DNA of 64,000 nt from Amoebophrya sp. A120 (lineage: Eukaryota > Protista > Dinoflagellata), in assembly GCA_905178155.1 (NCBI GenBank), contig CAJINV010000005.1, positions 5,002,256-5,066,255 of the forward strand, given 5' to 3'. Made by a program: the position numbers and the translations under genes. Positions 6,201-63,200 of the stretch are shown here, one piece after another (positions within the stretch are counted from its first letter, which is position 1; the number at the start of each line of letters is the position of its first letter). Under the pieces are notes generated by a model. It had not been told where the DNA came from. It was given only the letters and a program-made list of their open reading frames with translations, and ran no database searches.

Positions 6201-9200
6201 ATCACAAACTTCAGCAATCTTCCAGACCCAGACACTTTTGCAATGTATATGGAATTTACAGGGACTTCTTGTAGTTTGATTGTCGATATGGATTGTAAAA
6301 ATATCTGGGTCTGGAAGGTTGGAACTTGTAATGCTAGCTTTCCATACCTAGACAATCTGTATTGCATAACCAACAAAAGTCGCAGCCTCTTTTGTCATGC
6401 AAAAACGCAGTTTGATTGTCATGCGGATTGCCTATGAGAAAGCGTTTTGGGAAGTTGTCATGCTGGGCTGCATTCGGAAGCGTTTTCATCATGGACATAT
6501 TAGCATCACAAGTTTCCAGACCCAGACATTTTTGCATTTGATTGTGGACCGCATGGATTACAAGACGATGCTCAACTACTACTTCAAGCAGGACGACTAT
6601 GGAGGCGTCAGGATTGAAATCGGCAAAGTTGAAATAATTTCTCACGCGTAAATTGCAAGGCATGAAGTGCCTCTCTTGCAGGGGCGGCAGGTGAGGCCGA
6701 CCGTCAGCCTGTTTGGGATCTGCGGCAGAGCTGCTCAAGTAGCATGACAAAAGACGCCTTCTGTCATTAAACAGCATGACAAACTGGATTTAGACGGTGT
6801 CGATATTTGTCATGCGCCGCTTGAAAATTTGGCTTCCAACTGGTATCGATTTTCTGCAGTGCAAGTTACTTCAACTTTGTCGATTGCAAATCTGACACTC
6901 CCATAACGACATTGCGACTTCCACCGTCACAATCACCTCCACGGTACGGCCGAACTACCCACCAGATTTCTACTACGGGGTCTACAGCTTCGGGGACGAT
7001 TTCCAGTACAAGATGGAGTTCGGGTACGATTCGATCGAAGCGCCGAATCAGGCGGACAACGCGCATTTAGCCTCCTGTACCGGAGATGGTTGTAAACAAT
7101 CCTGTTTCGCCAAGCAGTACAAGTCTTCATTCGAGCGCGGCTACACTTCAAAGCATCCGGATTACGTATCAATTGCAAAAATGTCTGGGTCTGGAAGATT
7201 GCAAGTGTGTCATGCTTGTCTGGCATGAGTCGAGAATCTGTGTTGCATAGACACCGAAAGGCCCTCTTACCTGTCATGCAAAAACGCAGGTTGCCATGCG
7301 GAATACGTAAGACATAGGAGCCAAAAAATTTGTCATGCGTAGCTGCGTATAATTGCAGTGCTTCTACCATTCACTTTTAGCATCACAAGTTTCCAGACCC
7401 AGACATATTTGCAATCCATATTGCGGCATGATCCACCACACGTATAACCCGAATGGTATGAAATGCAAAAGCATCGTACTAGTACAAATCGCATTACAAA
7501 TGTGCTCAGCATTAGAAATGGAATTTGTAATGCGTATTTGAATTGATAAAAAAATTTGTGTTGCATGACTGCAATTACTACGAGTACGATGCTTTTGCAC
7601 AGGATAAATGGTGGCAGTCTGCAAGATTATGTGGACATGAACTCGGACCACCGTGTATCCTGAGCAAAAACGTCCCCACCCCAGAGTTGTAATGCAAATC
7701 TGCATGCTCAGAATGTTTCTCATGCGGAGTTCCATGAGAAGCAATTTCTAGTCGTGTTCTGCAATTTGCCATGCTCGAATGTGCATGATATACTAGATCT
7801 GTTACGCTGCTGAGCTAGCTGAAACAGCACTACGCTACGACTCCAAATTTGTCATGCAAAACAGCCAAAACTTGTGGATTTGTCTAGCCGGTTCCCCATC
7901 TTGACTATGGGGTGGGGACGCTTTTACATAGGATACCGCCACTACGACTGGAGTTGGCGGCGCCACCCGAAGGTGGCGGCGCTGTACGACAAGGAGGACG
8001 GCGACAATACCAACGCGAATAATTATGACGCGAATCCATCGTCGGAAGATGATAAGGGGTGCTTACTACCCGCAGGTCGGTTCGACGGGGTCGCGGGGCA
8101 CAAGAACGCACTGCTCGCGGCGGACAACGTGCACTGCCCGGGGGAGAACAAGGTTTCCATGGTGCAACTCGCGAAGGGCTGCACGGTGGATCTTTGCCCC
8201 ACCTCCCCCACCCCGACGGACACGAGTAAATCACATTGCTTCCGCGTCGGCCCCGGGCCGGGCGTGTTTAAGGCGAGTGACGGGCATTTCGATTCGGACA
8301 CCATGTACGAAGCGCATGTGTATTGTCACATTAACAATCCGGAAGGGATATCAAATGCAAAAATGTCTGGGTCTGGAAGATTCCTACATTTGTCATGCGT
8401 GTCTGACATGACTCAATAATCTGTGATGCATGGGCACGAAGCGGTCCTCTTTTCTGTCATGCAAGCGCGCAGTTTGCCATGCGGAACACGCAACACGTAG
8501 GAGCCCAAAAAATTTGTCATGCTTGGCTCCGTATTGCAGTGGAACTCTCGTTCACTTGTAGCATCACAAGTTTCCAGACCCAGACATTTTTACATTTGAT
8601 AAGGGACGATGAGTTCTTTTGCGGACAATGCGGACGGTTCTGGGGCGAAGTGCTCCCTCCCAATTGGGCGGTACGGGAACAGCTGGGTCAGCACGTGCCA
8701 CCCAAACAAAATCCTGACGGGAGACATCCACGTTGGATCAGATCCTCTACACGGACCGTGTCCGGTGAATGATAAAGTTTCCCAAATTATCATGTGTAAA
8801 AACGTCCCCGCACCAGAGTCAAGATGGTAAATCTGCTACACAAATCAGCCAGCTCTGGCTGTTTCGCATGACAAGTTTGTCCTTGTAGCGGAATCCTGTT
8901 TAGGTAGTTCAGCAGCATCACAGACCTAGCTTATCATGCTGGTTATAGCATCACAAATCCCAAGACACGACTAGAAAACGCCTCTCATGGGGCTCAGCAT
9001 GAGAAACTTTTTTGGCATGCAGATTTGCATGACAACTCTGGGGTGGGGGCGTTTTTGCTGAGGATACAGATCGTGGTGAAAGCCGGCTGTGCCGCGCACG
9101 TGTTCCAGCACTGCGACGGGATCTCGGGAAATTCTATCGCGAGGAGAAATCCCCTCTCCCCATATTGACAAGGTACGTTTTCGAAAATTTGTGTTGCTGA

Positions 9201-12200
9201 TTTGTGACCACAAATCGTCTCTGTGTTGCATGAAGACAACCCCACAGACAGAAGACAACCCCACAGACAGCCGCCGCATTCTACAGGCGGTCTGTCATGC
9301 TGTTGCTCCTACAGCGTAGACGTCTGGCATGCTAAGCGCCTAGGCCAAAACCGGTCTACTCAGGCTTGATATGGGCCTGCAGTCCTCGTCGGCAAGACGG
9401 AGCTGATTTGTGTACTACACAAATCCAGCATCAGAAACCTCGTTTTGATATGGGGAGGGGGGATTTTTCATTCTGATAAATTCCAATCCGGCCGTGGACA
9501 ACGCAGCGGTTTGGTACATTAAGGGAAACCAGAACACCCCGGCCACGTTCACCGGGTCCCCCGGGACGGAGAACATTGCGATGCGGGCCTTACGCACTGC
9601 AAATACGTGTCTGTGTCTGGATCTGGAAAGGTGCAAACTTGTGATGCTGCTTTTGGAATCAAAACAAAATCTGTATTCCCCGAGTAGAAACATTAGGCCG
9701 CCTCTTTGCATCAACGCGAAGAGGGCAACATTTGTCATGCGGGATAGGCATCCAGAAGCACTCAGAAAATCTGTGATGCTGGGGCAGGCATCACAGACAT
9801 AGTGGGTCATACAAAATGTGCATGACAAGCACCTACTTTCTTCCAGACCCAGGCATTTTTGCAGTTGATAGGCCTTCCGCGACAACGACGCGTCGGACGT
9901 GATGCTGTTCTGTCCGGATGTGCCCCGCGCAAGTGACGTCACGGACAGCTCGAAGCAGGAAGTCGCTGGTGTTTCCTACCAGTTGAAGGGGTCTTTTTCC
10001 CTCTCCGATTGCGGACGGGCTTGTTTAACGCTTGGGAAGGACTGCTTAGGCTATCACCAACAGGTCTACGACAAGACAAACCGGAGGTACACGAATTACA
10101 AAGCGGATCAATTAGCACCCTGTATTTTACGTTTAACCCAGACTTCTATCGAGCCGGAAACGAAACTGCTATCGACCAAGAAAGTCTTCGGAATGCCGGA
10201 CGCCGTGACTAATAGCTGGATCGACTCCGCGTTCGGCGCTATTGACAACAAACTGCAGGAGGAAACGCCGAAACTGTATCCTGAGGAAAAACGTCCCCAC
10301 CCCAGAGTTGTCATGCAAATCGGCATGCTAAAAATGTTTCTCATGCGGAGGCCCACGAGATGCATTTTCCAGTTGTGTTTTGGAATTTGTCATGCTCCAA
10401 TCAGCATCATATACGTAGATGTGTGATGCTGCTGAGCCAGCTCAAACAGCACTACACTACGACATCAAATTTGTCATGCAAAACAGCCAAAACTTGCGCA
10501 CTTGTCTAGCCGAGGCTCCATCTTCACTATGGGGTGGGGACGTTTTCACACAGGATAAACTGCAAATAAAACACAAGCAAAAAGACGCGTCGATCGGGGG
10601 AAGGAAAGAAGCAGTTGCGTATGGGGGCAGTGATATCCTGAGCAAAAATGTCCTCACCCCATAGTCAAGATGCGAAATCTGCTACACAAATCAAGCACCT
10701 TTGGCTGTTTCGCATGACAAGTTTGTCGTCGTGGTGCAGTGGTGCTGTTTGAGGTAGTTCAGCAGCATGACAGATCTAGCGCATCATGTTGATTGGAGCA
10801 TGACAAATTCCAAAACACGACTAGAAAATGCTTCTCGTGGGGCTTTGCATGAGAAACATTTTCATCATGGTGCGCATCTGCATTACAACTCTGGCGTGGG
10901 GAAGTTTTTACTCAGGATAAGTGAAGCCACGGACTTTTTCGACATGTGCTACACGAAAATGGACGGTGAGACACTGATATCAAATGTAAAAATGTCTGGG
11001 TCTGGAAGATTGCCAGGTTTGTCATGCACGTTTTGCATGACGTGTGAGGTCTGTGATGCATGCCCTAGCATCACAGATTTTGTGAGATCTTTACCATGCC
11101 TTTTCCGCATGAGAAACCGCCTCTCGGCCTTCTCAAAAGTGAACAGCTTTATTGGTAATCATGCAACACAGATATTTATATGATTCAGATTTAGCATGAC
11201 AAGTTGTACTCTTCCAGACCCAGACATTTTTGCATTTGATAACTGTCAGCAGCCGAGCAGAAGGAGATCTATTCGCTGACCGGTACATCTGACTACAGTG
11301 TCTACGAGTCGATCGCGCGAAACGGCCCGTGCAGCTACAGCTCGAATGCAGCTGGAATTTGGAAAGCGCGGTTCACCCCGGCTTTTGCCACCCCGTTCCA
11401 GATCCACAGCGACTTTAAGGAATTCTGCTACGGGACGTGTAATAAATTTTCCTCTTGCGCTGGGATTTCGTTCTCCGAGCGGCCGCCCGATGTGCACGGG
11501 AAGTACGGCTGCGATCTGATCTTCGAGGGCCAGCTCCCCCCGGACAGTGAGTTGCCGGTAAGTGATTTCTTCGCGGTGGTGTGGACGAAAGAAGCGAGTT
11601 TGAACTCTTTGTTAATCGATTCCTCCGCCAGTTCCACAGATTCCGTGATCCGGCCGCAAGTCGCTTCCCCGGTGCCGCCGTTGATGACAAGCGGCCAGTG
11701 GTTCTGTGTGGCGAAGAAGACAACAGGTGCAGCAGCAGGTTCATCTCCGCAATACCTCCGCTCGCGCGGTATGCATGCGTTGGGGGCGACCAGGTTCAAG
11801 AAGATCACTAAAGAACCCGCTTCATCCACCGCCGACGCAAGCACTTGCCTTTCGAAATCTTTATTCCACCCGGATCAACTCCCCTCGTCCCCGAAAGCGA
11901 TTGATGTCATTGAGTTGGAGATTCTCGGCAGCGAAATTTCTTTAGACCGCTGCTTGTACACTTGCGAGCTGAAGAAGCACGAAGATCCAACCGTGGGGAA
12001 TTGCAAGGCTGTCGTCTACCGCTCGAGTGATGAGACCTGCGTGCTCGCGTGGTTGTTGAAGAATGCCGGGACCGTGGCGGTCGAAACCTTCACCAAAGCG
12101 ATGCAACAGGCGATTCGGGATCAAGCACCGTTTTCAGTCGGTTTGTCCGCGTTTGTGCGGAGGGCTCCGGAGTTGTTGGTGTCCTTACCCCAGATGAACA

Positions 12201-15200
12201 GCGACGTGTTACGGCCAAGTTTCAGCGGGTATGACAATTTGTTCAACCAGATCCTAACCGCGACCTTCAACCGGGCGGAAACGGAGCCGTTGTCGTTATT
12301 ACCGCATTTGGACTTCCTGAATCTGCCCGGCGGCAACACCAGTTTCAAATCCATTCGCCTCGTACAGGAAAGGATGCGAATTCGGACGAGGTTTTTACTC
12401 CCCTTGATTCCCGGGACTTTGTCGACGAATCTAGTTGCTACCGCACCGTCGAACTCGCCGCAGTCTTTGGATTATCTCCTCGATTTGATCCGCCCGGCGG
12501 TGCAAAAGGCGGTGGTGATCAATCTTAGAGGAAGTCACGACTCGCTTGGCCCGAACGGGGCGTACTCCGATTTGTTCCAGGATTTATCGCCCGGTAACAT
12601 CACGGTTTCGGTGTATTCCATCCCGGACTTGTATAAAAAGTCGAAGCAGCTCCCGAGTACTGCTATCCCAGCAAATCACGCAGATTCCGTTCTGGTTGAG
12701 ATTTCGGTACCATTAGCCGTTGACTTTACGAATCCGAATCTTGCTAACCTGACCGATGCACAGGAATTATCGGATCTGAAGCAGAACATTGCGGATATGC
12801 TGACGCCGAGTTCCGCGGACTCTGCGTCGACGAATACCACCGGTTCTGGGTCGACTACTACAAGCACGATGTTTACAGAGGTTCTTCCCATCCAACTCTC
12901 TTTCGCGGGCGTCCCGGTTTCTGAACCTTTATTCGCAACGGGGAGTGGTGCCGACGCGGACGAGATGGTTCTGAATAAATACAGCAAAGCGGTGTTGACG
13001 GAGTTAGTAGCGCCGAACGCTGATGGAACAAGCACTTCTCTGGGCTTCACTCTCCCGCCCAACAAAGTTTCCTCCGCCGTCCAGCCGATCGTGTCCTCCA
13101 CGGAAGCCAGCAACGTGAAATTTATCCGGTCCAAACTCCGTTTGAATGTCAGCTTCAGGGGGAAGCAGTTCAAAGACTGGGTGCAGAACGCAATCGCGAC
13201 AAAACTGCAAGAGGAGGTGGATTTCTGCGCTTCTACTACGAACGTGAATTCCGATGATGTTGAGACACAGAAGCAAACCAAAAACTTCTACTTCGCGAAG
13301 AAACTGCAGCAGGAGATTGCAGCCGGGGGGTTGGACAAGTCGGAAATTCCGAAGATCAAGAAGGAAAACGTGATAGTGTTTGAACAAATCTCCTCCGCGG
13401 CAAGGGGGGCTAAAACCTTGGACTTCGAAATCCTCGTGAAAATCGAGGAATCCGAGGCGGTGAACGCGGTGTCGAGTTTGGTTTTATCGCTTTTATCTTC
13501 CAAAGATTCCGAGGAATCTTACACTTTCGGCCCGAATTCGGTTTCGAACTTCGGGAAGGAACTGAAGGACTTTTTAATCTCGACGAAAAACACGTATTTC
13601 TCCCAGTCCTACGGCGGCGCGCTAAAAGGGGTTAGCCTCCCATCGATGGCGCAAGCCAGTCCGACGGCGAAAAATCTCCGGTTCAGCTTCGATTTCTCGT
13701 TGGATGCGACGAACTCCGCGTCTTTATCCGATGCGGAAATCAACGAAAAAGTGACAAATTTGGCGAAAGTATGCTGAGTAAAAACGTACCCACCCCAGAG
13801 TTGTCATGCAGATCTGCATGCCAAAAAAGTTTCTCATGTGGAGCCCCATGCGAAGCATTTTCTAGTCGTGCTTTAGAGTTTGTGATGCTAGAAGGAGCAT
13901 GATGCACTAGATCTGTGATGCTTCTGAACTAGCGAAGCAGGACCACACCATGAGGGCAAACTTTTCGTGCGAAACAGCGAAAGCTGGTTGATTTGTCTAG
14001 CAGATTTGCCATCTTGACTCTGGTGCGTGGGCCCCGTTTTTACTCAGGATAGAAAGCGGCGTTAGCTACTGCGATTTATCGAGGGACCGGGATCTGGCTC
14101 ATGCCGGCGCAGATCTCACTGTATTTCTTGGAGAACTCCATCACGCCTTTCAAATCCCCCGTGTTTCAACTGACGATCCCCGCGACGAAGCCGAAACTGC
14201 AGTGGTTCTTGGCCTTCCAGTTGGAGAAGTTCGTGACGGATTACGTCGCGGTGGAATTGAACGCCCTAACTGCGACTGTTCCGGGAACAACGGCGAGTGT
14301 GGAGAGTTGTGGCATTTTGGCGCAGAGGTTGGGGTACACAGACACTTCCGCTCCAAACAGTAAGCCATTCAGCTGTGACAGTTGGAAGCAGATAGTTTCC
14401 TACACGGCGGTATCAACTGTAAAAATGTCTGGGTCTGGAAGATTGCCAGGTTTGTCATGCACATTTTGCATGGCTCCTGATGTCTGTGATGCATGCCCTA
14501 GCATCACAGATTTTGTGAGGGCTTCCTGATGCCTATACCGCATGACAAATGCTCTCTCCGTGTAGCAAAACTTGGACGCTCTTTGCTGCTCATGCAATAC
14601 AGAGTTTTTTAGAATCCAAAATCAGCATGACAAGTTGGATTCTTCCAGACCCAGACATTTTTACAGTTGATAGGTGGACTCCGCGAAGATCAAGCCGTAC
14701 ACGAAATCCTCCTCTTATGGACGTGTCAGGCTTGAAATCGTCAAAGTTGAAATAATTTGTAATGCATAAAATGCATGGCCCGAGGTACGTGCGTTGCAGA
14801 GCAGGCAAGTGAGGCCGATTGTATGCCTGTTAGGGGTTACAGCTCGAGCTGCTAAAGTAGCATGAGAAAATCACTCTTCTTTGCCTAAACAGCATGACAA
14901 ACTGGATTTAGGGCCCACCAAAATTTGTCATGCGCCACTTGGTAACTGGGTTCCAACTGGCATCCATTTTATGCATGACAAATTATTTCAACTTTGTCGA
15001 TTTCAACTCTGACACATCCATACCTCTTACGTGGCTGCGGATCCTGGTGTGCTGGAAGATGATCCAGTTGTTTCGACCGGGACGGTTACTACAACATTAG
15101 CTGGAAGTGGAACCGCAGCTCCGGTTATTCCCCCAACTACCCGTATCATGCAGCAGGTTGTTGGCTTCACCTTAACTTTGCCGTTAGACGCTCCATCCGC

Positions 15201-18200
15201 CGACGGGAAAGTTCTGCAACCGACGAGCATCCAGGTGTTGCAGAATTGGGTTGAGCACGTTATCAAACAAGAAGCGGGGAGGATTTTAGCTTCCGACACG
15301 GCTGTCGAATCCTCTCTGCAAAAACCTGACGGCTCGAAAGGCGACATTTCCCTCCAAATCCCCACGACTGGGATTACAGTCGCAGTAGAATCCGCTTCAG
15401 AAACGAAGGTAACAACCCCGGCGCCCTGTCAGCTCTACGAGCCGGGGTCTGCGGTGCCGGGGAAGTGGGAACTGTACATGTACAAGCACGGGGAAGTAAT
15501 CGAGAACAACGGGTGGCGCGACATGCGGTACGGGCAAAACCCGAACGGTTTGAATTCCCTCTGCCCCCACCCGACAAGTGGAAATGCGAAGATGGCGGAG
15601 GCGACCTTTGACCAGATCTGCTACAAGGAAGTCTTGGCGGTGGGCGGGACCGGGGCCTGGGTGCGGATCAAGCGGAAGGACAATGGGTGTATTCCCGCGG
15701 CGCACGCGTTTGGACCGGGGGAACACTTATGCATTGCAAATATGTCTGGGTCTGGAAGGATGCAAGTCTGTCATGCGTGTCTTACATGACTCCTAATTCT
15801 GTGATGCATGACCAGGAAACGGGCCTCTTGCCTGTCATGCAAAAACGCAGTTTGTCATGCGCAAACGAAACGCAAGGCAGCTACAAAATTTGTCATGCTC
15901 GGCTGCGTATGTCAGTGTGCTTCACATTCACAGATTTGCATCACAACTTTCCAGACCCAGGCCACACGTTTGCACTTCATAGCACTCTATCAACGGCCAG
16001 TACTCCATGGTGACGTCGAGTGGGTTATCAAATGCAAAAATGTCTGGGTCTGGAAGAATCCGAACTTGTGATGCTGCATTTGGATTCCGAAAAAATCTGT
16101 ATTGCATAAGCAGCAAAGGGAAGGCAATTTTGGCTACGCGGAGAGGGCATCTGTCATGCGGAATAGGCATCGCGAAGCCCTCAAAAAGTCTGTGATGCTA
16201 GGGCATGCATCACAGACATCATGGCCCATGCAAAACGTGCATGACAAGTCTCAGAATCTTCCAGACCCAGACATTTTTGCATTTCATATGGGTTTTCGGG
16301 CGACGCGAAGGTCGGCCCGGTAAACCACGGTCCGCTCTTTTCTGACGCGATGGGGGGTGGCCAGTGGATGTGGCGCTGCAATAAAAAACCGGGAATGCAA
16401 TACGATGCGGAGAATTGCGCGTCATACGATACCGGGGGTGTTTTGGGTAATTCTTTCTCGGATCCTAATACCTGGGGCAATCTGATTTCGATGCCCGGCA
16501 TGTATGACGCGGGGAAAGGGGAGGCAAACTGCTGCAAGAAGGGGTACAGCTGGGCCTGGTACGGAAAAACGACGACGGCGACGGACGTCAGGCCTGCTTT
16601 CTCCGTATCAAATGCAAAAATCTCTGGGTCTGGAAGAATGCCAGACTTGTCATGCAGGTTTTCCATGAGCCATGAGGTCTGGTATGTAGGACATAACATG
16701 ACAGATTCTCTGAGAGTTCTATCCTGCATGAGAAACTGCCTTCCAAATTGGTCGAAAGTGGATGGCTTTTGGCACTCATGCAACACAGATTTTTGCATCA
16801 TTCGGAATTAGCATGACAAGTTGCAATCTTCCAGACATCCAGGGATTTTTGCAATCCATACTCCGGCGTGCTCGGAATGCAGATTATCAACGCGACGTTT
16901 TTAGTCAGCATTCCGGTGGATATGGTCGTGGAAAGCAGTAGTAGTAGTACGAGTGCAGCTGGATCATCCGGCTCTGGCTCTACTGGTGCAGCTTCCTCTA
17001 GTACAACCACCGCTGCGATTTTGGACGTGAAGCAACTAGAGCAGACCTTTTCCGCGGTCGCGAAAGCGATCAAGGAGAAACTGCCCGCCGGGGTGGAAAC
17101 CGCGTTGACAAACACTTACAAACTCGGCTTGAGGAAGGAAGAGATTGAATTTCTCAACGACCCAGTTCCCGCGGGCGACAGTTTTGTCTCAACAGAACCG
17201 GCGGGAAGTTCCATTTCCCCAACTACAGGTCAGTCCGCCGCGAGCCCAACATTTGTGGAGGGGAAGTTGAAGTTTTCCACCCACAGAGGGGTTTACAACA
17301 AGGACATCTCCCCCGAAGCCGCAATGGAATTGGAGGAGAAACTGCTGAAGGAAGCGCTGCAAATCGCCATTCAAAAAGCGGTGAAACGAACCGTCTTGAA
17401 AGAAGAACTCCGGCAGTCGGACCCCTTGGCGATCGAAGAGAGCAACTTCGAGCAACCGGCGGTGCAGATTTCCCCGCCTTCATCTGTGCGCGTAGTGAAG
17501 GAGGAGCGAACGGCGACGGTTTTGTTCCACGGGTACTACAGTTCAGACATTGTGGGCGAGTTGTTAGCTGGGTTCTCTGATTCCCCGAACAGCAACCAGA
17601 CGGCTTTGGTCCAGGCGATTGCGAATGAGTTCGCAAAAGAGGTGCAGAACCCGACGACTCCCACGACCGCGAAGATCGGGGTGAGTAAGATCGGGTTGAA
17701 GGAAAATAGTTCCGCTTCGATTGTGTCGCAGACGAAGTTCTCTTTAAAGGTGAAAGCGCCGCAGAAGACCACAGCTTATTTGTTATCCACCGTCTTTCAA
17801 AATTCGCCCTCAGTTCTACAACTAGAACACGCTGTGGCGAAAGCAGTCGCGAGCTCGTTCCGTTCCGCCGTTGGTGCGTTCGACGAATCGGTCTTGTCCG
17901 CTGAGCATGTTTCCGTGACGCTGAATCCTGATCAAGTACCGGGGATCGATTCGGAAGTGGAATTCACTTGCTCCGTCCCGTTTGGAGATCCGGTGACAAG
18001 TGAAGAAGTGCTCAACGTGGAGTCGAACCACCCGTATTCGGTGAAATTTAAGCAAGATTTGTTGAACAACGTGAAGCAGAATTTCATCACTCTAAAACCA
18101 GTCGACCCGAACCCAAATATCATCGCGGGCGCGGCCAGTCTCTACTCTGAGCAGCAAATCCAATCCAACGTGAAACAAGGCTCGGTGCAGACGACCTCTT

Positions 18201-21200
18201 TTGCTTCCAACCGCATGCATCTGGACGTTTTATCGGAGAAGGCGCAGTTGGACCGATTGTCTTTGACTGCGATTGTGAAAACTTCTGCCGCGAAAGCGAT
18301 GGTGGAGGCGCTGGCGACTGGGGACAGTATCCCAGCTGGGAAATCGAAGTTAGAGTTTGTCGAAGAGAAGTATGGGAGCAAGTACTTACTACCGATCACC
18401 TATGGAACTGTCAGGATTGAAATCGTCAAAGTTGAAATAGTTTGTGATTCATAAAATGGATGCCAGTTGGAACCCAGTTTCTAAGCGGCGCATGACAAAT
18501 TTTGGTGATGCCTAAATCCAGTTTGTCATGCTGTTTAGGCAAAGATGACTAATTTTCTCATGCTACTTTAGCAGCTCGAGCTCTAACCCCAAACAGGTTT
18601 ACAATCGGCCTCCCTTGCCTGCTCTGCAACACACGTATTGCGCGCTATGCATTTCATGCATCACAAATTATTTCAACTTTGGCGATATCAAACCTGACGC
18701 TTCCATATCACCCCGGCTTCCGTCGTGATCCGGTTTTTTGAGCCGGATCAACAGGCAGTTGCGACCAACGCGAACCAGTTTGCGGATCGAGTGCAGAACC
18801 TTGACAGCTCCGTTTTGACGAGTTCCGGCATTGACAAGACGAATACCAAGGCGGACTTCTTCGACTTTTCTGTCTCTTTGCTGATGCCCTCGTGTAAGGA
18901 CCAGTCGAACTGTAGTGACAAAGCGGAACTACAAGCATTGAAGGACAAAACTGTCGCTGCGGTCTCTGCCGACGCGGTGGCGAAGTCAGCTGATGGAACA
19001 ACAGATAAAAACCCGTCTGGGAAGAACTTCTACGAGAAATTCCTTACCGAGTTGAAAACCCTAGGGGTGCCGACTCTCCAGGAGGTCATTATGCCGCACG
19101 CGATAGGAGCTGCGACATCCTCCTCCACTGCGAAATCTTCTGCGCTTCTCTTCTCCCCGACACAATCGACCCAAGTCGCGGCCGTTGCGAAGCCGCAGGT
19201 TAGTGCGATTCTGGACAAGGACGAGCCGCAGCCGGTGGTTTATATCGAAACCAGAGGGGTGTTGCGATCTCTCGCGGAATATGGAATGCAAAAATGTCTG
19301 GGTCTGGAAGAATGCAACTTGTGATGCTAAATCTGAATCATGTAAAAATCTGTGTTGCATGATTACCAAAAGCTGCCCACTGTTGACCTAATCGAGAGGC
19401 AGTTTCTCATGCAGGATAGGCATGATAAAACTCTCACAGAATCTGTTGTGCTATGTCCTACATACCAGACCTCATGGGTCATGGAAAACCTGCATGACAA
19501 GTCTGGCACTCTTCCAGACCCAGACACTTTTACATTTGATACAGAGTCGGCTATTGCAGATCCATCGGAGATTTTGGCTAATACCGGTGACGCAGCGAGT
19601 TCGGCGACGACTCAGAAATCGGAAAGCGAGATATCCTATGTAAAAACGTCCCCACCCCAGAGTCAAGATGGGAAGTCTGCAACACAAATCCCCAAGTTTT
19701 GGGGATTCTGCATGACAAGCTTCCATCTGCAGTGTAGTACTGGCTGACAAGGAAAGCCGCATGACAAAGTCATTTTCTCGTCCTGTTTACAGCATTACAA
19801 ATTCCAAAACACGACTGGAAATGCCTCTCATGGAAGTGCGCATTACAAATCTTCCTGTCATTGCACATTTGCATGACAACTCTGGGGTGGGGATGTTTTT
19901 GCACAGGATATGAGATTTTGAGGGAGATTCTGGAGGAAGTTGGGCAGTCTGCGGCGGAAGAAATTCTCCCGCAGGTAGCTTTGCTTTCTTCCGAAGATGT
20001 TGACGGTGTCGGTGCTGGAAGTTCTGGTTCAACTACATCTGGCGCTTCGACTAGCACCGGCGCCGGCGCAGAGTTCGGAATGAACACCGAGGCTTATTAT
20101 CTCGCGCACCGGACAACCACAATTGCGCCTGACGGGAGTACGATAATTGCCACCACGGCGACGCCGACCACGACAACCGCAGCGAGCACTGCAACCGGAA
20201 ATACGACCGACCCAACAACGACGTCCACTACTTCCACTTCTACCACCACCACTTCTTCCACAACCACCACAACTTTCGTCCGCGACCCAGCGTTGGCGAT
20301 AACAAAAGTGAAGGCGAAACTGTTGCACGCGTCATTGGGAAAATACCCAGTTGGCACCGTCCCTTCCTCCCTAGTCGGAAAAATCTACCGGGAGCAGCAC
20401 TTCGCGCTGACGTTTGACTTGAAGAACGTCACGACCAAGCGGTTAGGCATGATTCAGGAGCAACTTTCTTCCGACTACAGCAAATTTGGCATCAATTTGC
20501 GGGATAAGATCACGACTTACACGAAAAACCCGAGTTTGAACAAGGGGCTGATGACCAAGTACACTTTACACGATATGCGGAACGCGGAGCGGATTTCCAC
20601 GACGACCGCGGTGATTGACATTGAGGAGATTCCGGATGATACGAAATACGAACTGCAAAACGACCGGACGTATTCGTTAGAACCCTCCGCGATTGATATT
20701 GAACTACGCCTTGACGGCGGGGATTTGCACGGGGCGGAAACGTATCAAATGTAAAAATGTCTGGGCCTGGAAATTTCTGAGACTTGTCATGCACGTTTTG
20801 CATGGGCCATGAGCATGATGTCTGTGATGCATGCTCTAGCGTCACAGACTTTTCGAGGGCTTCGCGATGCCTATTCCGCATGACAAATGCCCTCTCCGCG
20901 TAGCCAAAATTGCATTCCGTTTGCTGCTTATGCAATACAGATTTTTTGGAATCCAAATGCAGCATCACAAGTTTGCATTCTTCCAGACCCAGACACTTTT
21001 GCACTTGATAAAACGCTCTTTTCTGCGAGCAAAAGGGTCCGAACAGACGCGATCGCCGCGGGGAAAACGTCTGCGTTCGCAAACCCGGAATCCCCTTCCG
21101 TTTGGACGAGCCGAAAGTGCTTAACGGGCGAATTCTTCTCCCGCGACGCCTACGATCTCGGCGAAGATCGCGTGTTGGTGTTGAAACTCGCTTATGCATG

Positions 21201-51200: not shown

Positions 51201-54200
51201 GATGCGGTTGAGTTTACCTTTGACCAAAGGCGCTTCTTCTTGGCTGCCGGAATCGGAAGCGATGCTCTCCTCCTGGCTCCAGGGCACCACGAAACAAGCG
51301 GTGCAGAAGTTGACCGGGATTACAGATTTCGATTCTTCTGCCATCACTGTGGTTTTAGGCTCTTCTATCGACGCTTCTTCCGGGTCAGCAACAGTCCCCA
51401 TCCAGGTTTCCATCCCGATTTCCGAATCCCAGCTCTCCGTCGCCGCCGACGCCTCGACCGCCGCGACCAAAGCGGCTTTTGAGGCGGCGGTCAATGCGAT
51501 CAGCGCCAACGCGGCCGCGGATCTGAAGGCGGAAGTGAAGAATGTGTTGGAAACAACCTACAATCTAGAGTTCTCCGGCCCGCCGGAAGTGACGGAAGAG
51601 CCGAAAGCGGTGGAGGAATCGGTGGTTTTGAAGAAAGAGTATCAACTGCAAATATGTCTGGTTCTGGAAACAGGAAACTTGTGATGCAGAATTGTGGATG
51701 ACTGAATATTTGCCAATGCAGCCAAGCATGACAAATTTGCAAAACGCTCTCTCATGCTCAGTCCGCATGAGAAACTGCGCTTTTGTATGACCAAAGAGGG
51801 CGTCTTTTTTGTTAGTCATGCAATACAGATTTTACGGGAGTGTAGGAGTAGCATTACTTCTACGAGTTCCATGCTTCCAGACCCAGACGTTTTTGCATTT
51901 GATAAAGAGCCATCCATTGCGAAGACCGCATCGTATGTGGAGGGTTCGTTCGCGATCAACGTGCCACAGACGATCGACACGAAGAAATTACAAACAGTTT
52001 TGAAAAACGCCGTGATTTCCTCCTTGGATAAAACCGTCGATGCTTTAAACGGGGAAACTTCCACTCTCACCCAGGTTGCGGTTTCCGTCTCCCCTGGGCC
52101 AGATACCAGGAACGAGGACGCGGTGAAACAACTCGCAGCAACGACTACGAACGAGGATAGAGATGTGAAAATCACTTTATCAGGTGAGTTAACCGCGGAC
52201 CAGGTGGCGCAGATCGTGGAGGCATTGAGTTCGTTATCCGATGAAGCGAAGCAAGCGACAGATTCCACTACGGATAGCAAGGCTTTGAAGAAAGCAAGGA
52301 CGTTCGCAAGCACTTGGGTGGCGGATTTGACAGCGTTGGACACGGCGGATGATGACATCAAACTCAACACAGCAGTAACTTCCTCCGATGGTTCCACTTC
52401 TATCGTGAAACAAACGTCCACCGCGAAGCAAGTTTCGCAGACCGAGTCGAGCCTGAAACTGGTTCTGAAACCATCCACTGGGGTGAAAGACGCGACAACT
52501 GGAATTGCGCCGGTGAAAGACGGCGAGCCATTGACGGATGTCGCTGCTATTCCGAGCAATGATGTGATGGAAGACATCACGCAGGAAGCGATTGCGGCGA
52601 CAATTAACCAATTAACCGGGTTGGATTTGACACCGGAGCATGTGTTTGTGGATTTGAAAACGGATCACTCTGCTGAGCCGGAGTTGTCCTTCACAGTCCC
52701 ATCCGGGGACGACACGGTGGCGAAGTTCTTGTCCAAGCAGGATAAGAGTGGGAGGAAGGAGCAGTTTCAGCAGTTACTGCAGCAGAAGATTGCGGAAGTC
52801 ATGGCGGTGAAAACGAGCACAAATATCACCATCTCCACCGCTCCGGAGGATGTGGCGAAAATGGTGACGAAGGAATCCGCAGGGTCCACTTCGTATTTGA
52901 AAACCACCATGGACTTCGCTTTACCAGCGGGTTCGGAAGCCTTGTCGCAAGAAGCGCTGTTCGCGCTTGCGCAAACCGCAGCGGCGAAGGCTGTGAAAGA
53001 GGCGGCAGGAACAGCGACTGTCGTTGAAATCCCGGCGAACCAATTTTTCGTCAGGTACACACCAGGTAGTACCAACACGAACTTCGGGTTGGAGATTTCG
53101 GTCGCCATGGATTCGGCGGATTATTCGTCTGCGCAGAAACTGAAAGTGGAGAAGGCTTTTTCGAAACTCGTTTCGAAGAAAACAGTGAATTTGACCACCG
53201 GAGAAGAAACAGTCACCACCGAGTCTTCCGCGGAAGCGAACACTTTCGCCTCTGCGTTCACGACGCAATTGACGAATCTAGGTGTTTCTACCTTCGAAAC
53301 AGCCCCTGCAGTCACAACGGAAAAAGCGGAAGTTTCGGTCAAACAAGCAACAACCGATCTAGTTCCGGACGACACGGAATCGCCCGCGCCAGGTGGGCTG
53401 ATTTACGTCGAGTCGGAAATCTCCATCGAAACGCCATCAGCGTCTGTGCCGTTTTCTTCCGATGCGGCCGGGGCGGATGAGCTCGCCGTACATTTACAAT
53501 CCGCAGTCTCAGAAGCGGTGAACACGAAATTTTTATCCGGCTTCACCAATGAAACTGGTAGTAACCCCGCGGTGAAGAAAGAGCAGGTCGGCTTGACTTA
53601 TTTGTACATGGCACCAGTCGAAGTCGGGTCGGATAAACGTGTTCGGGTGTATAGAGCAACAGTGCAGGCACACAGTCTCACCACCGCGCAGATCGGGACT
53701 TTAACAACTGCCATGTCCGAGCCAAAGAAGGAGAAATTTTCCGAAACTCTGGGCACGATTTTGACCGAAAAATCCCATCCAGCGACTGGTGGGGATGCAA
53801 AGCTACAGCAGGTCTCGAACCCGAAACCGACGAAATTGGCTTCGCAGTCGTCGCAGACGCACTTCCGCTTGGAGCTGCAATTGGAGAATGCCATGACAAA
53901 ATCCGAAGCGGAAGCGGCTGTAATCTCCGGTTTGCAGACTTCGCTAAAGGACACGTTGTCTGAAGTCGGTGTAGCCCGGTTGTCCAAAGAGCACATCCAC
54001 ATCAAGTGCGAGCCGGAGTCGACGTTTATCAACGAGCCGAGCAAAATCGGAGATGCAACCGCGACTACGAAAAAGTGGACCTTTTTCGTCGCTTTACCAA
54101 CCTCTGGTAAGACGATAACCACCATGGTGGAGGAATTCCAAACAGATTCCGCTAACAGCAACAAGAAGACGAAGCCGCCAAACCCGGACGCGGAAATCTT

Positions 54201-57200
54201 CACGACAATTTTGACGAACAAGCTGAAGACGAATCTTGCTGCGGACACTTTGTCCACAGACGCTTCTCTGGCGAAGGAGTTGTTGACCGTGCCGGTCACG
54301 AGTAAGGAAAGAGTTTATCTCCAAACGGAGATGGCTTTGTCCATCGACGTGACGCCGAGTGAATCGCTTGATGACGCATTGAATGTGAAGAACACTGGGG
54401 ATTTATCCCCCGCTTTGCAGGCTGCGGTGGCTTCCGCTTTGAAATCTGCGATGCCGGAGGGCGAGGATTTGACACTTCGGTCCGGCGACGTCGCGGTGCA
54501 GTTATTCCCGGAATTGCCGATCAGACAGGATACTTCTACCACGCCTCCGACTCTAACCCAGTCGGTTCGGGTCGCGGTTTCCATCCCGTTAGCTGTTGCT
54601 GGCGGATCGGAGAAGGCGGCGAACCGGTTGCAGCTGTTGATGTCCAAAACCGCAGCGGAATCGACGGATTTCCTGACGAAACTGGCACCGAGGTTGGAGG
54701 TTCGGGGTGTCAACTTCGAGCAAACCGCTGTTGCTGACAGTGGAAGCACAGGCTCTGGTGCTGGCGCAGGAGCCGCAACAGTGCCCGGCCTTGCGGTCAC
54801 GACGGAAAACGCAGCCAGGTCCGAAGTCGCTTCCACCGAAACCACTACGAAGGATAACGTCAACTTTGTCCAATCCGCTCTCCAAATCTCCATCGGCAAC
54901 GCTGGGGTTCCAGCCAAGGAGATGCAGCTGATTCTCTCCAAAGCAATCGCCGAAGCGGTTTCTTCCAATTCCGCAATTCAGGAGGCGGCGGGCGGCGATT
55001 CGTCCGCGATCACGATGAAGGATGTTGGGGTCGTCGTTTCCGCGAAATCGAAACTCACCGACCAGAAGGAAATCTTCGTCACCATCGCTTCCCGGGAGAC
55101 GCAGTCCTCGACCAAGATTCAAGCAGCAATTGCTTCCCTGTTCTCCTCCTCTTCTGAAAAGTCTTACCAGCTCGCGCAGTCGTTCGAGGAGAACGTGAAG
55201 CGGATTATCACGGTTAACGGCGGAATTACCAACCCAGAAGCGAACAAGCAGAAATACGCTTTGGCGGAAATCCGCGGCGGCGCGGTGCAGTCAGTAGCGG
55301 CGATCCCGGCTTCGATGACGAGCGGCAGAGCGCAGTTCAGCTTCAACTCGGAACCAAATATCGACGACAGCATGACAAACGAGCAGCAGGAAGAAGCGAT
55401 CATTAAGTTGATCCAGCAAGGGTTTGCAAACGCTTTGGAAGAAGCTTCTGGTATGGGAATCCAGCCCGAGCAGGTGTCGATTGTTCTCGATCCGGAATCG
55501 GTGAAACTACGACAGCCGACTTTTTCGTATTCTGTGCCTTTATCGGAATCTCAAGTCTCCTGGTTTCTAGATGAGGACACGAACAAGGACAAAACGAAGG
55601 GGTTCACGCCCTATTTGACGGCGGAAATCGACAAGTTAGCGAAACAGGAGACGGATAGTTCTGTCCCCGGAGTAGAGAAACCCGCCTGGGAACAGTTGAC
55701 AGCGAAGGCTACTGATGTCGGCATGGACACGACGGCGGAGACGAAGACGAAAACTTACTTGTCGACAACTTTGGAGTTGGATTTGATTGATTCTGGGGAT
55801 TCAACCTGGCTCCCCAGATCCGAGACGATGCTGCAGCTCTGGGTCCAGTCCGCAGTGCAAAAATCGGTGAAATCCATCGCAAATGTGGATATCAAGTCCG
55901 ACCACGTGTCTGTGTTGTTGGCGGAGGAGCTGCCGAAAACCGGTAATACCGCGAAAGCGAAGATGTCGATCTCGATCCCCTTTGAGTCAACCGATTCTGC
56001 GCCCGTGGATTTACCCGCGGTTTTGTCCGCCTTAGGGGCGAACAACGCAGCGCAATTCATGGCGAACACGAAGACGGAATTGGAGTCTTTTGGTTTAGGC
56101 TTCCAATCCGATGTGAAAATCATCACACCGGAGAAGACCGAGAAGCTCCCGGAAGGGTTGACAACGACCACGACTACAACAACCACTACTGTTGTTGGCG
56201 CGACGCCGAAAACCGCCAGAGAGGCGGCGGCGAGCACCTACGGGACGAAGACTGTAGTCGAGCAGTTGGCGGAGAGGGAAGAAGCAGAAGCTGGCGCTTC
56301 CGCCACTCCACCTCCATTGTTCGCGCCGTCTGCAGAAGCGGTGGTTGCGGCGGAGCCGGGAATTCCTGGCGGCAGTACGTATCTTGAGGGTAAGTTCGAC
56401 ATGAAGGTGACGAACCGGATTTCCACAGAAAGGTTGTCGAACTTGCTGAAGGCAGCAGTTCGTGACTCCCTCCCCTTCGCCGCGCCCGCGACCATGGACT
56501 TGGACTTCACGGTTGCGGTTTCTGTTGCACCGCTATCCCGTTAAAAAGTATCGTAGTTGTACTAGTAATTGCAGTCATGCATGACTAATGCGCGTCTTCA
56601 GGGAAATCACCATGACAAATTCCAACTTTCCTCCTGAAAAAATCTGTGTTGTAATTTCTACCAACGACGATACTTTTGTAATGCATAACCACCATCACAG
56701 GAGCTGATGTTTGGTGAGGTGATTGAGGACCGGCAGACTTCGATCATCATCCACGGTGCAGGTCTGAACACCAAAGCGGTTTCGCAAATCCTAGACGCGT
56801 TGGACAAGATCGAGGAGGGGATGGTGACAGAGGCGAAATCCCCGATTGCAACTTCGTCTACTACGCAGGACGGAACGGTCAGGCAGAATCCGGCTTTGAA
56901 ATTCCAACAACTCGTGAAGCAGTCGGTGGATCAGAAGTTATTAGCTTCCCCCTACAACACAACCACCGGTGGTTTCGCCGTGAAGGAAACTGCGAAGCCG
57001 ATTACCAGGACGGAATCCGAGATCAGCTACTCCTTCGGGGGAGCGGTGAGCCCGCCTCCGAACACCGACACGGTGTTCATTACGAAAAGAGCGATTGCGA
57101 ACGCGCTGAACGAAATCGCCGGGCTGGAGTTGACGCCAGACCACGTCGCCGTGGATTTGAAGACGGATTTCTCGCTCTCACCGGAGATGTCGTACTCCGT

Positions 57201-60200: not shown

Positions 60201-63200
60201 AGCAAGTACCGTCGGTGGGCAAGCGGCGTTTGAGACACCGGGGCTCTTGCCTGCGACGACGGAAAAGGCGAAGGAGGCGACGACGAACGCCTTGAAACGG
60301 GCGGTGAAGGAGACACTGAAGGAAATCGCGGGTCTGGAATTCGTATGCATTGCAAAAGTATCGTACTCGTGCTGATTGCAATCGTGCATGACAAACTGCG
60401 GTCTTAAGCGAAATCAGCATGACAAGCCCCATTTTTCCTTTTGAAAAAATTTGTATTGCAATTTCCACTACTCCTACTGCGATACTTTTGCAATGCATAA
60501 TCCGAACTGGAGCACGTTTCTGTCAAACTCGACCCGGGCACTGCGGAGATCGGCGCACCGTCGTTCTCCTTCTCCATCCCCTCGCAGGGCAACGTCGCGA
60601 CAGCGCTCTTCTCTGAAGGAAGTACGAAAACCGCTAGTTTTACTGATTTGCTAAAGAAAAAGATCAGCAAGCAGTACTTCCAGGCAGCTTCTGATGAAAC
60701 CTCAGATTCCGCCGTTGAGGGGCTGCCGAAGGTGGATGTTTCAAATGTTGACACGACCCTACCCATCGAGGAGCAGGAAGCGTCTTTGATCACGAAACCG
60801 GTGCAGATGACCGGCACGGCGAAACAATCGAGATTTACAGAATCGACTCTGTCCATCGGCCTGGCTTCTCCCGAGCAGGGTGGGCTATTGCCGAAATCGG
60901 AGGACATGCTGAGATCTCTAATCGTGTCCGCGACGATTGATAGCGTGAAAGCACAGGCGAACTTCGACTTAACGCCATCCGATGTGACAGTAGTTTTCGC
61001 CGGGGATGTTGCCGCGATTCTGGAAATGGTTTCCAAGAACGCAACTTTAGCGACCAATTTGGACGCTACCGTGATTGTGGAAGTCGCTGACTCCCCGACG
61101 CCGGATCCGACGACCAAAACGGTCGAAAATTCCGGTGCGAAGGTGCAGCAGATTGTGGATCAATTGACGACACAAGTCACCGGCGAGGACGGAAAGCCGA
61201 AAACGGTTCCTTCAACCGCTTTTGTCACGAAGATCCAGACGGAATTAGAGTCCTTTGGGTTAAAAGTTCCGAACCCACCAGACCCGGACCCGAAGAAGGG
61301 AATGGAGCAATCCGCACCAGCCACAACCGAAGATTCTTGGGTGCCACCGGTGCCGGAGAAACCTCTGTCGTTAGGTGGGGAGAATCCAAACATCGAGCCC
61401 ACGCCTTTGATTGAAACGAACATCAACGTGAATCTCGGTTCGTCCTCCAAGGGTTTGACAGACAACACCGTGCAGGAAATGATAAGAAACGCAGTTGCGG
61501 AATCTTTGGTCGCAGAATCGACCGTCGGAGAACAAGCCGGACAGCCGGCGCAACCAGTGGTTCCCGGATTCCTCGATTTAGTCCTGGAATCCGCTGGGTT
61601 TTCAAAGCAGGAACAACAAGCGATGACAAAGGTTGAGAAAGCAAAAAATGCGGAGAAGTTCATGGAAAGTCAAATTTCCGTGTTTTTCACCGACAAAAAA
61701 CCGAAAGACAAAGCTGGTGGCGAGCAGCGCGCTTGCTCCGTTGTGATCTCCGCGAAGTTGGCGAATTCCACTGTCGTGCTGGATTTGCTGCAGGCTTTAT
61801 CCAAGGAATCTTCCTCCACTAACGATGAGAAGTTCGAAGAAACGTTCACGGCCGCGCTGAAGCAAACCGCATTGCAGACACATTCTATTCCACCTTCCGA
61901 CATTGTCACCGACGTCACCCAGAAATCAGCGAAACCGGTGGAGCAGATTTCCACGAACATCCAGTTCGACTTCGATATTGTCCCCAAAGACCCGACAACC
62001 ACGCCAGTGAACATGATTTCCGACAATACTATCGCCGAAGCGAAGGTTTCGGTCGAGGAAATGAACATGATGTTGCAGGAGTCTGTCGCGTTTGCGTTGA
62101 ACGGTACAAGGGGGATGTCGCTGCAGGCTTCCCAAGTCGCGGTCAACATTTTGGATGACCTCAGTTCCATCATGACGACCGACCCAGCTGATCCGAGTAA
62201 GAAACTCCTACCGTTGGTGCAGAAGTTGAACAAGGGGCAGCCAAATGAATCGTTGAACAGCTTGCTTTCCAACTTGAATTTCACGATCTCCATCCCAGTG
62301 GCGTCTGACACGAACGAGATGATGCATTTGGCGGACGAAACGGCTGGGAACAAGATGTTTTTGAAAGCGGTCCAGAATTCGATGGCGTCGCAGATTCAGA
62401 CATCGAATTTTATCCCAGAAGTGGTAAAACAGGATTTGAAAGTCGAGACGAAAGAGTTGAAAACCACGAGTTCTGTCCCATTAGCCCAGTCGTTCACCGA
62501 AGCGTTTATGGAGATTGACTCGCCGATTTCCGATGAGGAATTGATCGCGACGATCAAGTATCAAATGTAAAAATGTCTGGGTCTGGAAGAATGCACGTTT
62601 GTCATGCTTGTCTGGCATGACTCTTAAATCTGTCATGCGCGTTACGCTAGAGCTCCGTTTTTCTGTGATGCAGAAGCGCAGTTTGTCATGCAGAATAGGC
62701 AACACCTAGGAGCTCAGAAACTTGTCATGCTGAGCCAGCATTTGTAGCCTCATCATGAGACGCCACCCAGCATCACAAGTTTCCAGACCCAGACACTTTT
62801 GCACTTGATATCAAAGGCGCTGCGGCGGATGCGGTGGACACTTTGGTTCCGAACATGCCGAAGGGGGTGGAGCCGAAGGACATCACGGTGTTGATTTTGA
62901 AAACCGAGGGAAACAAGAGGGAGATTGTCGTGCAGACACCAGTGCAGAAAACGTTACCAATTCAAACGGTGGAAGTGGTTGAAGAGGTGACGGTGACGAA
63001 TCCTGATGGCAGTACCACAGTCACACAAGTGACGAAACAAGTAACTTCGGTGAATGTCACTGCGGTTGCGACTGCGGCAGCCGAGGCGGAGTACAAGGGT
63101 TCTGCGAACGAGGTTGCGAACAAAATGTCCGCGGCTAGCTTCATGGTCCCGTTTTCGACGCGTATGGAGGTGAACTTAGATTCTATGTTCACTTTAGACG

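Follow-up and report, generated by a model that had tools for sequence, protein, structure and literature searches.

A window of 64,000 nucleotides of Amoebophrya sp. A120 (contig CAJINV010000005.1), a marine parasitic protist, carries 63 short inserts in one giant gene, facing either way. These inserts are introner elements (IEs) of A120, a class already published by Farhat et al. (2021; PMC7789003). Those covered by contigs of likely RNA runs or by gene models are absent from them in both orientations, each together with exactly one copy of a 5-nt target duplication. The cut appears to be placed asymmetrically, and the element ends are likely under a constraint that follows the direction of transcription. 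Our reading, to which we give a probability of about 0.6, is that inserts spread by a DNA transposase are removed by a relaxed yet one-directional spliceosome that reads its signals from the inverted repeats. Statements below about published work refer to excerpts of the papers cited.

The 63 elements lie between positions 4 and 63917 on both strands, are 145–344 nt long (mean 245) and make up 24% of the window. They have inverted TAT...ATA ends, with five single-base exceptions, and terminal inverted repeats of about 30 nt. The first scan, for inverted ends, delimited 52 elements; the set reached 63 once 11 further repeat regions were refined and the single break still left in the reading frame was read. 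This independent delimitation matched all coordinates of an earlier, sequence-only reading and reproduced its numbering from 1 to 63. The A120 IE repeat pattern (TAT, seven variable bases, at least three A) is present at the 5' end in 50/63 elements and at either end in 53/63. The flanking direct repeat is 5 nt long: 285 of 310 letters are identical between the two copies and 42 of 62 elements have a perfect repeat, while 2000 shuffles gave a mean of 81.5 and a maximum of 119 identical letters. The match is 92% at length 5 and 29% at length 6; lengths 3, 4 and 6–9 are at chance. Element 42 (27104–27252) has the most decayed duplication, with two of five letters matching. It was overlooked by the repeat scans and is required by the frame.

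Once every element is taken out together with 5 nt, 16,073 stop-free codons remain on the + strand, open at both window ends (1–64000), and no canonical intron is needed in the 64 kb. Each of the 63 elements brings an in-frame stop if retained. That all of them interrupt one + strand frame, as the sequence-only reading had it, is borne out. The frame by itself is compatible with removal of the element length −1, +2, +5 or +8 nt; the removed length of element plus 5 is fixed by contigs, not by the frame.

Those contigs come from three likely RNA runs (X1, X2 and X3). Between 45000 and 64000 they skip nine of nine elements by exactly the element plus 5 nt, and the exon pieces listed show no other letters beside the skips. 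The nine are elements 55 (45766–45994, − strand), 56 (47587–47838, −), 57 (48066–48284, +, starting TAC), 58 (49960–50221, −), 59 (51640–51904, −), 60 (56534–56687, −), 61 (60344–60499, −), 62 (62559–62810, +) and 63 (63655–63917, −). Two opposite pairs are among them: 56/62, which are 96% alike and are each skipped by 257 nt in all three runs, and the family members 55/57. Farther upstream, an X1 contig piece stops at 39694, at the left duplication of element 52 (39700–39945, −). Contig depth along the gene varies 8- to 226-fold. Run X5 is DNA-like, with an even depth near 43 and reads running into the elements, and has none of the four listed exact skips. The other runs contributed six reads (X9), zero reads (X10) and eight contigs without a junction (X4).

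Gene models extend this to 28 further elements. Two NCBI proteins named Amoebophrya sp. A120, here P0001 and P0002, match window exons at 100% and are identical to the host frame. P0001 (6553–18316) is the splice product over elements 14–30 and P0002 (18299–26235) that over elements 31–41. A120 gene models take their introns from BLAT-aligned transcripts without assuming GT-AG, and such introns were validated by RNA-seq (PMC7789003). Transcript-based support thereby covers 37 of the 63 elements; for the other 26 the evidence is the frame. Opposite pairs with transcript-based support are 27/31, 26/29, 29/34, 19/25 and 56/62, while removal of the pairs 13/52 and 48/53 follows from the frame. One family has all its interior motifs on one strand and is removed in both orientations (17, 22 and 25 versus 19 and 23), so the interior is not the removal signal.

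Opposite orientation was assessed on pair identities computed after trimming 35 nt per end, which takes off the inverted repeats. All 13 opposite pairs of the sequence-only reading are real, scoring 0.83–0.96 as reverse complements versus 0.59–0.67 forward. Its description of them as near-identical fits the best pairs (0.93–0.96); most are 83–91% alike. Five same-orientation pairs score 0.82–0.93 forward, and shuffled interiors score far lower. Element 56 is the reverse complement of 62 (0.96) and of 49 (37261–37512, +; 0.94), and shares its orientation with 36 (21387–21644, −). Element 29 (16026–16288, −) is the reverse complement of 34 (20743–21010, +; 0.93) and of 26 (14411–14672, +; 0.84); element 11 (5675–5940, −) was named with it. 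The remaining pairs are 48 (35160–35315, +) with 53 (41842–41991, −) at 0.91, 13 (6287–6543, +) with 52 at 0.89, 27 (14716–15022, +) with 31 (18401–18707, −) at 0.89, and 19 (8788–9066, −), which has the one-strand interior motifs, with 25 (13770–14051, +) at 0.83; element 45 (31353–31632, −) was grouped with 19. Elements 19, 25, 27 and 29 are missing in P0001 and 31, 34 and 36 in P0002, and removal of 11, 13, 45, 48, 49 and 53 is read from the frame. A self-comparison of the window gave 603 matches, 311 on the minus and 292 on the plus strand. Nine families take in 58 of the 63 elements with no conflict among 149 orientation links. The split is 33:25, and eight of the nine families have both orientations.

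A strong genome-wide orientation bias was among the results that the sequence-only reading had named as speaking against it; no such bias was found in the window or in related loci. Metagenome contigs yielded 134 such loci (557,161 nt) by the repeat pattern; the identity of their element copies reaches 97%, and no exon orthologue of the host gene was found in them. They hold 339 well-bounded copies, of which 189 received a host-strand call and 150 without a call were left out. Three callers were used, correct on the window in 54/57, 45/51 and 59/59 cases, the last without training on the window. With the best caller (189 copies) every family is compatible with 1:1 (lowest p = 0.10), though a bias of up to about 2:1 in some families would fit as well. 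Its two most skewed families stand at 20:10 (p = 0.10) and 10:4 (p = 0.18), and overall it gives a chi-square of 16.1 on 11 degrees of freedom (p = 0.14). The 54/57 caller gives 74:65, no bias. The weakest caller (45/51) gives two skewed families, 29:10 (p = 0.003) and 15:5 (p = 0.04).

The elements have the anatomy of miniature inverted-repeat transposable elements (MITEs) or other non-autonomous DNA transposons with terminal inverted repeats: they are short and non-coding (longest stop-free stretch 93 codons), with inverted repeats and a duplication of constant length. Elements hold 262 copies of a shared 8-base interior motif and exons 6, and 344 of 791 motif spacings fall at 31–33 bp, three helical turns. 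The motif, TGT[C/G/A]ATGC plus a variant, repeats at this spacing across unrelated families, its first copy 32–33 or 40–42 bp from the element end. The pattern suggests a DNA-binding array, a candidate binding site series for a mobilising protein. Spread by a DNA transposase is likely on these features. The two orientations alone exclude reverse splicing, which moreover makes no target duplication, but they leave other RNA-mediated routes. The earlier proposal of DNA transposition agrees with the inverted repeats, the fixed 5-nt duplication and the subterminal motif arrays. An autonomous candidate of 4.2 kb (L048:5001-9208) was rejected, as it consists of separate elements around a host frame. 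Five longer elements of 457–972 nt carry extra interior sequence (L042:5001-5972, L027:3862-4492, L026:571-1051, L015:5314-5770 and L043:8961-9456). They are possibly nested insertions, and no long frame was found inside them. Searches for element matches in viral contigs and in Rfam found none.

Junctions with unequal duplication copies show the position of the cut, through the copy whose letter is retained. In contig junctions the retained letter is the left one at positions 1 (element 55), 3 (61) and 4 (60), and the right one at position 5 (62). In gene-model junctions the left letter is kept at positions 1 (40; 24504–24756, −; P0002) and 3 (15, 26 and 37, the last at 21718–22039, −, in P0002), and the right letter at position 5 (17 and 24; 7656–7935 and 10978–11241, both +, in P0001). 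If one register is shared by all elements, a single one fits all ten informative junctions (four contig, six gene-model). We infer that the intron spans from 1 nt before the left repeat to 4 nt after the right repeat (N-TAT...ATA-NNNN). At this register the 5' pair is GT in 20, TT in 14, CT in 14 and AT in 14 elements (n = 62), and 3/62 end in AG; GT..AG is possible at any register in 1/62. The 189 related copies have 60 GT and 18 AG. The elements thus lack the canonical U2 borders (GT start, AG end). All four bases are near equal at +1 and there are 16 different final pairs, which leaves no pyrimidine/purine junction consensus. The nine leading non-canonical pairs of A120 all begin NT (PMC7789003, Table S4), in agreement with this register. 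In strain A25 the repeats begin TTA and the nine leading splice pairs all begin TT (PMC7789003), so that there too U would stand at +2 and A at +3, despite the different repeat consensus.

The element ends are not equivalent. Of the five terminal substitutions in the window, two hit the third repeat base at the 5' end and three hit positions 1–2 at the 3' end, with none in the reverse arrangement. Among the related copies, 16 of 19 terminal substitutions follow the same pattern (p = 0.004), with 8 versus 1 at positions 1–2 and 8 versus 2 at position 3. Of the three that do not, two are A-to-G changes at −7 and one lies in a weakly called copy. A first tally left out four mis-bounded rows; the related-copy count given here used a fixed filter. 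An A stands at −7 in 62/62 window elements with both flanks and in 187/189 related copies. One strand-biased mutation process would not be expected to run in opposite directions at neighbouring positions. The ends are therefore likely under polar constraint, and whatever reads the signal looks directional. Register and polarity are drawn from 10 junctions and 24 substitutions in all.

The sequence-only reading had called the removal signal strand-symmetric. Its outcome is: both orientations are removed, in nine of nine contig skips and 28 more elements in gene models. The signal itself is less so, with an asymmetric cut (−1/+4) and ends constrained differently at 5' and 3'. The symmetry of removal comes from the inverted repeats, which offer the same ends in either orientation, and so gives no reason to reject a polar spliceosome. 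Predicted pairing of the terminal repeats has a mean probability of 0.83 on the transcribed strand and 0.80 on the opposite strand (above 0.6 in 59/62 and 56/62), and the terminal hairpin folds at −95.6 versus −94.7 kcal/mol on the two strands (p = 0.37).

These features can be assembled into a mechanism. The intron would begin with the last base of the left duplication and end with the fourth base of its right copy. With both cuts inside the duplication, the message would be restored exactly for any target sequence. The first-transcribed repeat would supply U at +2 and A at +3, making a 5' splice site without G at +1; U and A are the ordinary 5' splice site bases at these positions. The other repeat would supply the A seven bases ahead of the 3' cut as a candidate branch point, a spacing found in organisms with fused branch and 3' sites, and the 3' cut may be placed by distance, not by AG. 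Orientation would be irrelevant, since a repeat that reads as one of the signals on a given strand reads as the other on the complementary strand. Repeat pairing could bring the two ends close to each other in place of U1; the single test of pairing was null. In A120, U2, U4, U5 and U6 are reported along with 83 of 89 spliceosomal proteins, and U1 was not detected (PMC7789003). More specifically, and with somewhat less than even confidence, we suggest that the A120 spliceosome lacks U1 and requires no more than N-U-A at the 5' end plus an A seven bases ahead of a 3' cut set by a ruler, each transposon end acting as a two-way splice signal. If this is true, insertions would be removed without trace whatever their target sequence and direction, which would explain how the elements reached 17% of the genome.

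Several points weigh against a one-directional spliceosome acting on transposase-spread inserts. X1, X2 and X3 represent one sample, are contigs and are classed as RNA by an automated guess, and the A120 gene models may derive from the same data. Register position 4 is placed by one junction (element 60), and the number of families seen in both orientations at the register-fixing position is zero. Splicing of the related-locus copies is assumed. Two well-supported copies have G at −7 (L001:2873-3123; and L036:3398-3669, whose strand Pfam confirmed), and position 3, the −7 A, taken alone gives 8 versus 2 in the test set (p = 0.11). Upstream of this A there is no clear consensus for pairing with U2, the bases varying between families, and the contigs that make up the data showed no lariat or branch point. 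Among mismatches in the repeats on the transcribed strand, G-U and A-C are equally common (148 vs 162, p = 0.46), which gives no sign of selection for RNA pairing and leaves the need for it unproven. On the side of spread, none of eight long repeat-bounded stretches in the 557 kb of related loci holds a cognate transposase, and the excerpted text of PMC7789003 reports that no transposase was found in A120.

Removal without a spliceosome is possible, if rather doubtful. A structure-guided cut-and-ligate reaction, as proposed for euglenid nonconventional introns, would measure 1 nt (5') and 4 nt (3') from the hairpin base. Repeats predicted to pair on either strand, borders free of any GT or AG requirement, the non-detection of U1 and a 7-nt exon between elements 8 and 9 would all suit it. 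A staggered cut next to a stem is what an endonuclease could well make; such an enzyme could also be polar, so the end constraints are compatible with it. It sits poorly with the absence of a G-U excess, with the test set, where a pair-breaking change at 5' position 3 occurs eight times and a wobble-keeping change at the facing A twice, and with the match of U+2 and A+3 to an ordinary 5' splice site. The null wobble test would be expected if RNA pairing were incidental and a protein, perhaps a domesticated transposase, bound the repeats or the subterminal motif array in DNA or nascent RNA and recruited the splicing machinery. PMC7789003 itself proposes a new protein subunit, and the motif enrichment and its helical spacing would supply the binding sites. 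The same array is equally explained as transposase-binding sites for mobility, however, removal is indifferent to the polarity of the interior motifs, and no candidate protein has been identified; we consider this route unlikely.

Two further explanations dispense with RNA removal or with two-way insertion. The elements could be eliminated from DNA, as in ciliates, or X1–X3 could be DNA of a strain with empty sites. The guessed RNA status of these runs permits this, and an empty site would likewise lack the element and one duplication copy. We regard it as very improbable: the exons are identical although nine of nine old, diverged insertions are missing, contig depth is far from even, the DNA-like X5 holds the elements at even depth with 0/4 skips, such introns have RNA-seq validation in PMC7789003, and the end constraints follow transcript direction. 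Still less credible is spread by reverse splicing or another polar route in which recombination between the inverted repeats turned the interiors round at a later stage. Such repeats, about 30 bp long, might in principle flip an interior in place, but the unequal ends are flipped along with the interior out to repeat position 4: element 48 reads TATG...GATA and element 53 TATC...CATA, with a whole-element reverse identity of 0.88. Moreover, every site has the 5-nt duplication that reverse splicing does not make.

The elements are clustered along the gene, with 20 of 62 gaps at most 71 nt long (5.4 expected; maximum 13 in 5000 simulations), and their number per 16 kb falls from 5' to 3' as 28, 17, 11 and 7. 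The shortest exon has 7 nt (5163–5169, between elements 8 and 9) and the next shortest 31 nt. Element 42 and the elements not placed above start at 4, 290, 2298, 2676, 3524, 3882, 4535, 4903, 5171, 5355, 5978, 6598, 7167, 7457, 8349, 9135, 9591, 10277, 10634, 15728, 16606, 19280, 19632, 21193, 22228, 23103, 25134, 27104, 28567, 29395, 34079, 34427, 37560, 37905 and 42046. The host frame is stored at NCBI as separate partial models, and no longer database protein was found for the exon at 42264–45758. The first third of the host protein has cysteine-rich stretches and a LamG domain (window positions 509–2290); the rest is rich in serine, threonine and alanine and nearly free of cysteine. The product looks like a giant surface or adhesion protein. 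The gene also contains a coding repeat that is not an element (752–1008 and 15457–15713, 74% identical) and shorter coding repeats at 43100/47393, 46524/51532 and 52587/57090.

The elements share with the published A120 IEs the TAT, seven variable bases and AAA, the short direct repeats and a length of about 240 nt (PMC7789003), as well as the occurrence of tens of introns in a single gene (Gozashti et al., 2025; PMC12130899). They have the end-pairing repeats, direct repeats within 3–5 nt, families and removal from RNA without GT-AG by which that class is recognized; the sequence-only reading did not identify it. The excerpted text of PMC7789003 makes no mention of element orientation, calls the border position unknown and variable (legends of Fig. 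3 and Fig. S23) and proposes a mechanism other than ordinary splicing. In the window the duplication has a constant length of 5 nt, all ten informative junctions agree with a single register and the ends appear to be under polar constraint. The −1/+4 register and the predicted branch point at −7 make both the place of the cut and its agent testable. If the rule is right, it shows the least that a spliceosome needs to recognize an intron, explains why the transposons are harmless to exons and corrects A120 gene models, such as the partial models into which the host frame is split. Our searches turned up no paper that reports how Amoebophrya elements are oriented, at which register they are cut or where they branch. 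Roy et al. (2023), Henriet et al. (2019), the Gozashti datasets and the logos of Farhat et al. (Figs 3, S21 and S23) may bear on these points.

Other systems share parts of this design. IS3EU/GingerRoot transposons have the same TA..TA termini, and their integrase-like transposase would fit the integrase-like open reading frames reported for some A120 introners; their duplication is usually 6 bp (PMC10045372), compared with 5 bp here, where a length of 6 does not exceed chance. Euglenid nonconventional introns likewise have paired ends, junction repeats, non-canonical borders and a likely MITE origin, but show a pyrimidine/purine junction consensus and circular excision products (PMC11282704), whereas no junction consensus is seen here. 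The non-canonical introns of Fritillaria are MITE-derived, with inverted repeats and duplications, and are removed by a modified U2 spliceosome; they prefer AG-AC and AG-AT borders and keep U1 (PMC11282704, PMC13326754), while here only +2 and +3 are fixed and the 3' pair is free. Further sources for comparison are PMC12005148 and PMC8469720. The introners of Micromonas pusilla and Aureococcus anophagefferens are also intron-creating non-autonomous DNA transposons found in both orientations, but they retain canonical splice motifs and recruit splice sites that the target provides (PMC10228655, PMC7789003). The window elements require no G at +1 and no AG and can therefore use any target. Introner insertion in both orientations was reported by Huff et al. 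(2016; cited in PMC10228655), and the method of PMC9860276 allows for it. Two-way insertion is therefore not new, being known from other introners; what the A120 elements add is the register and the polarity.

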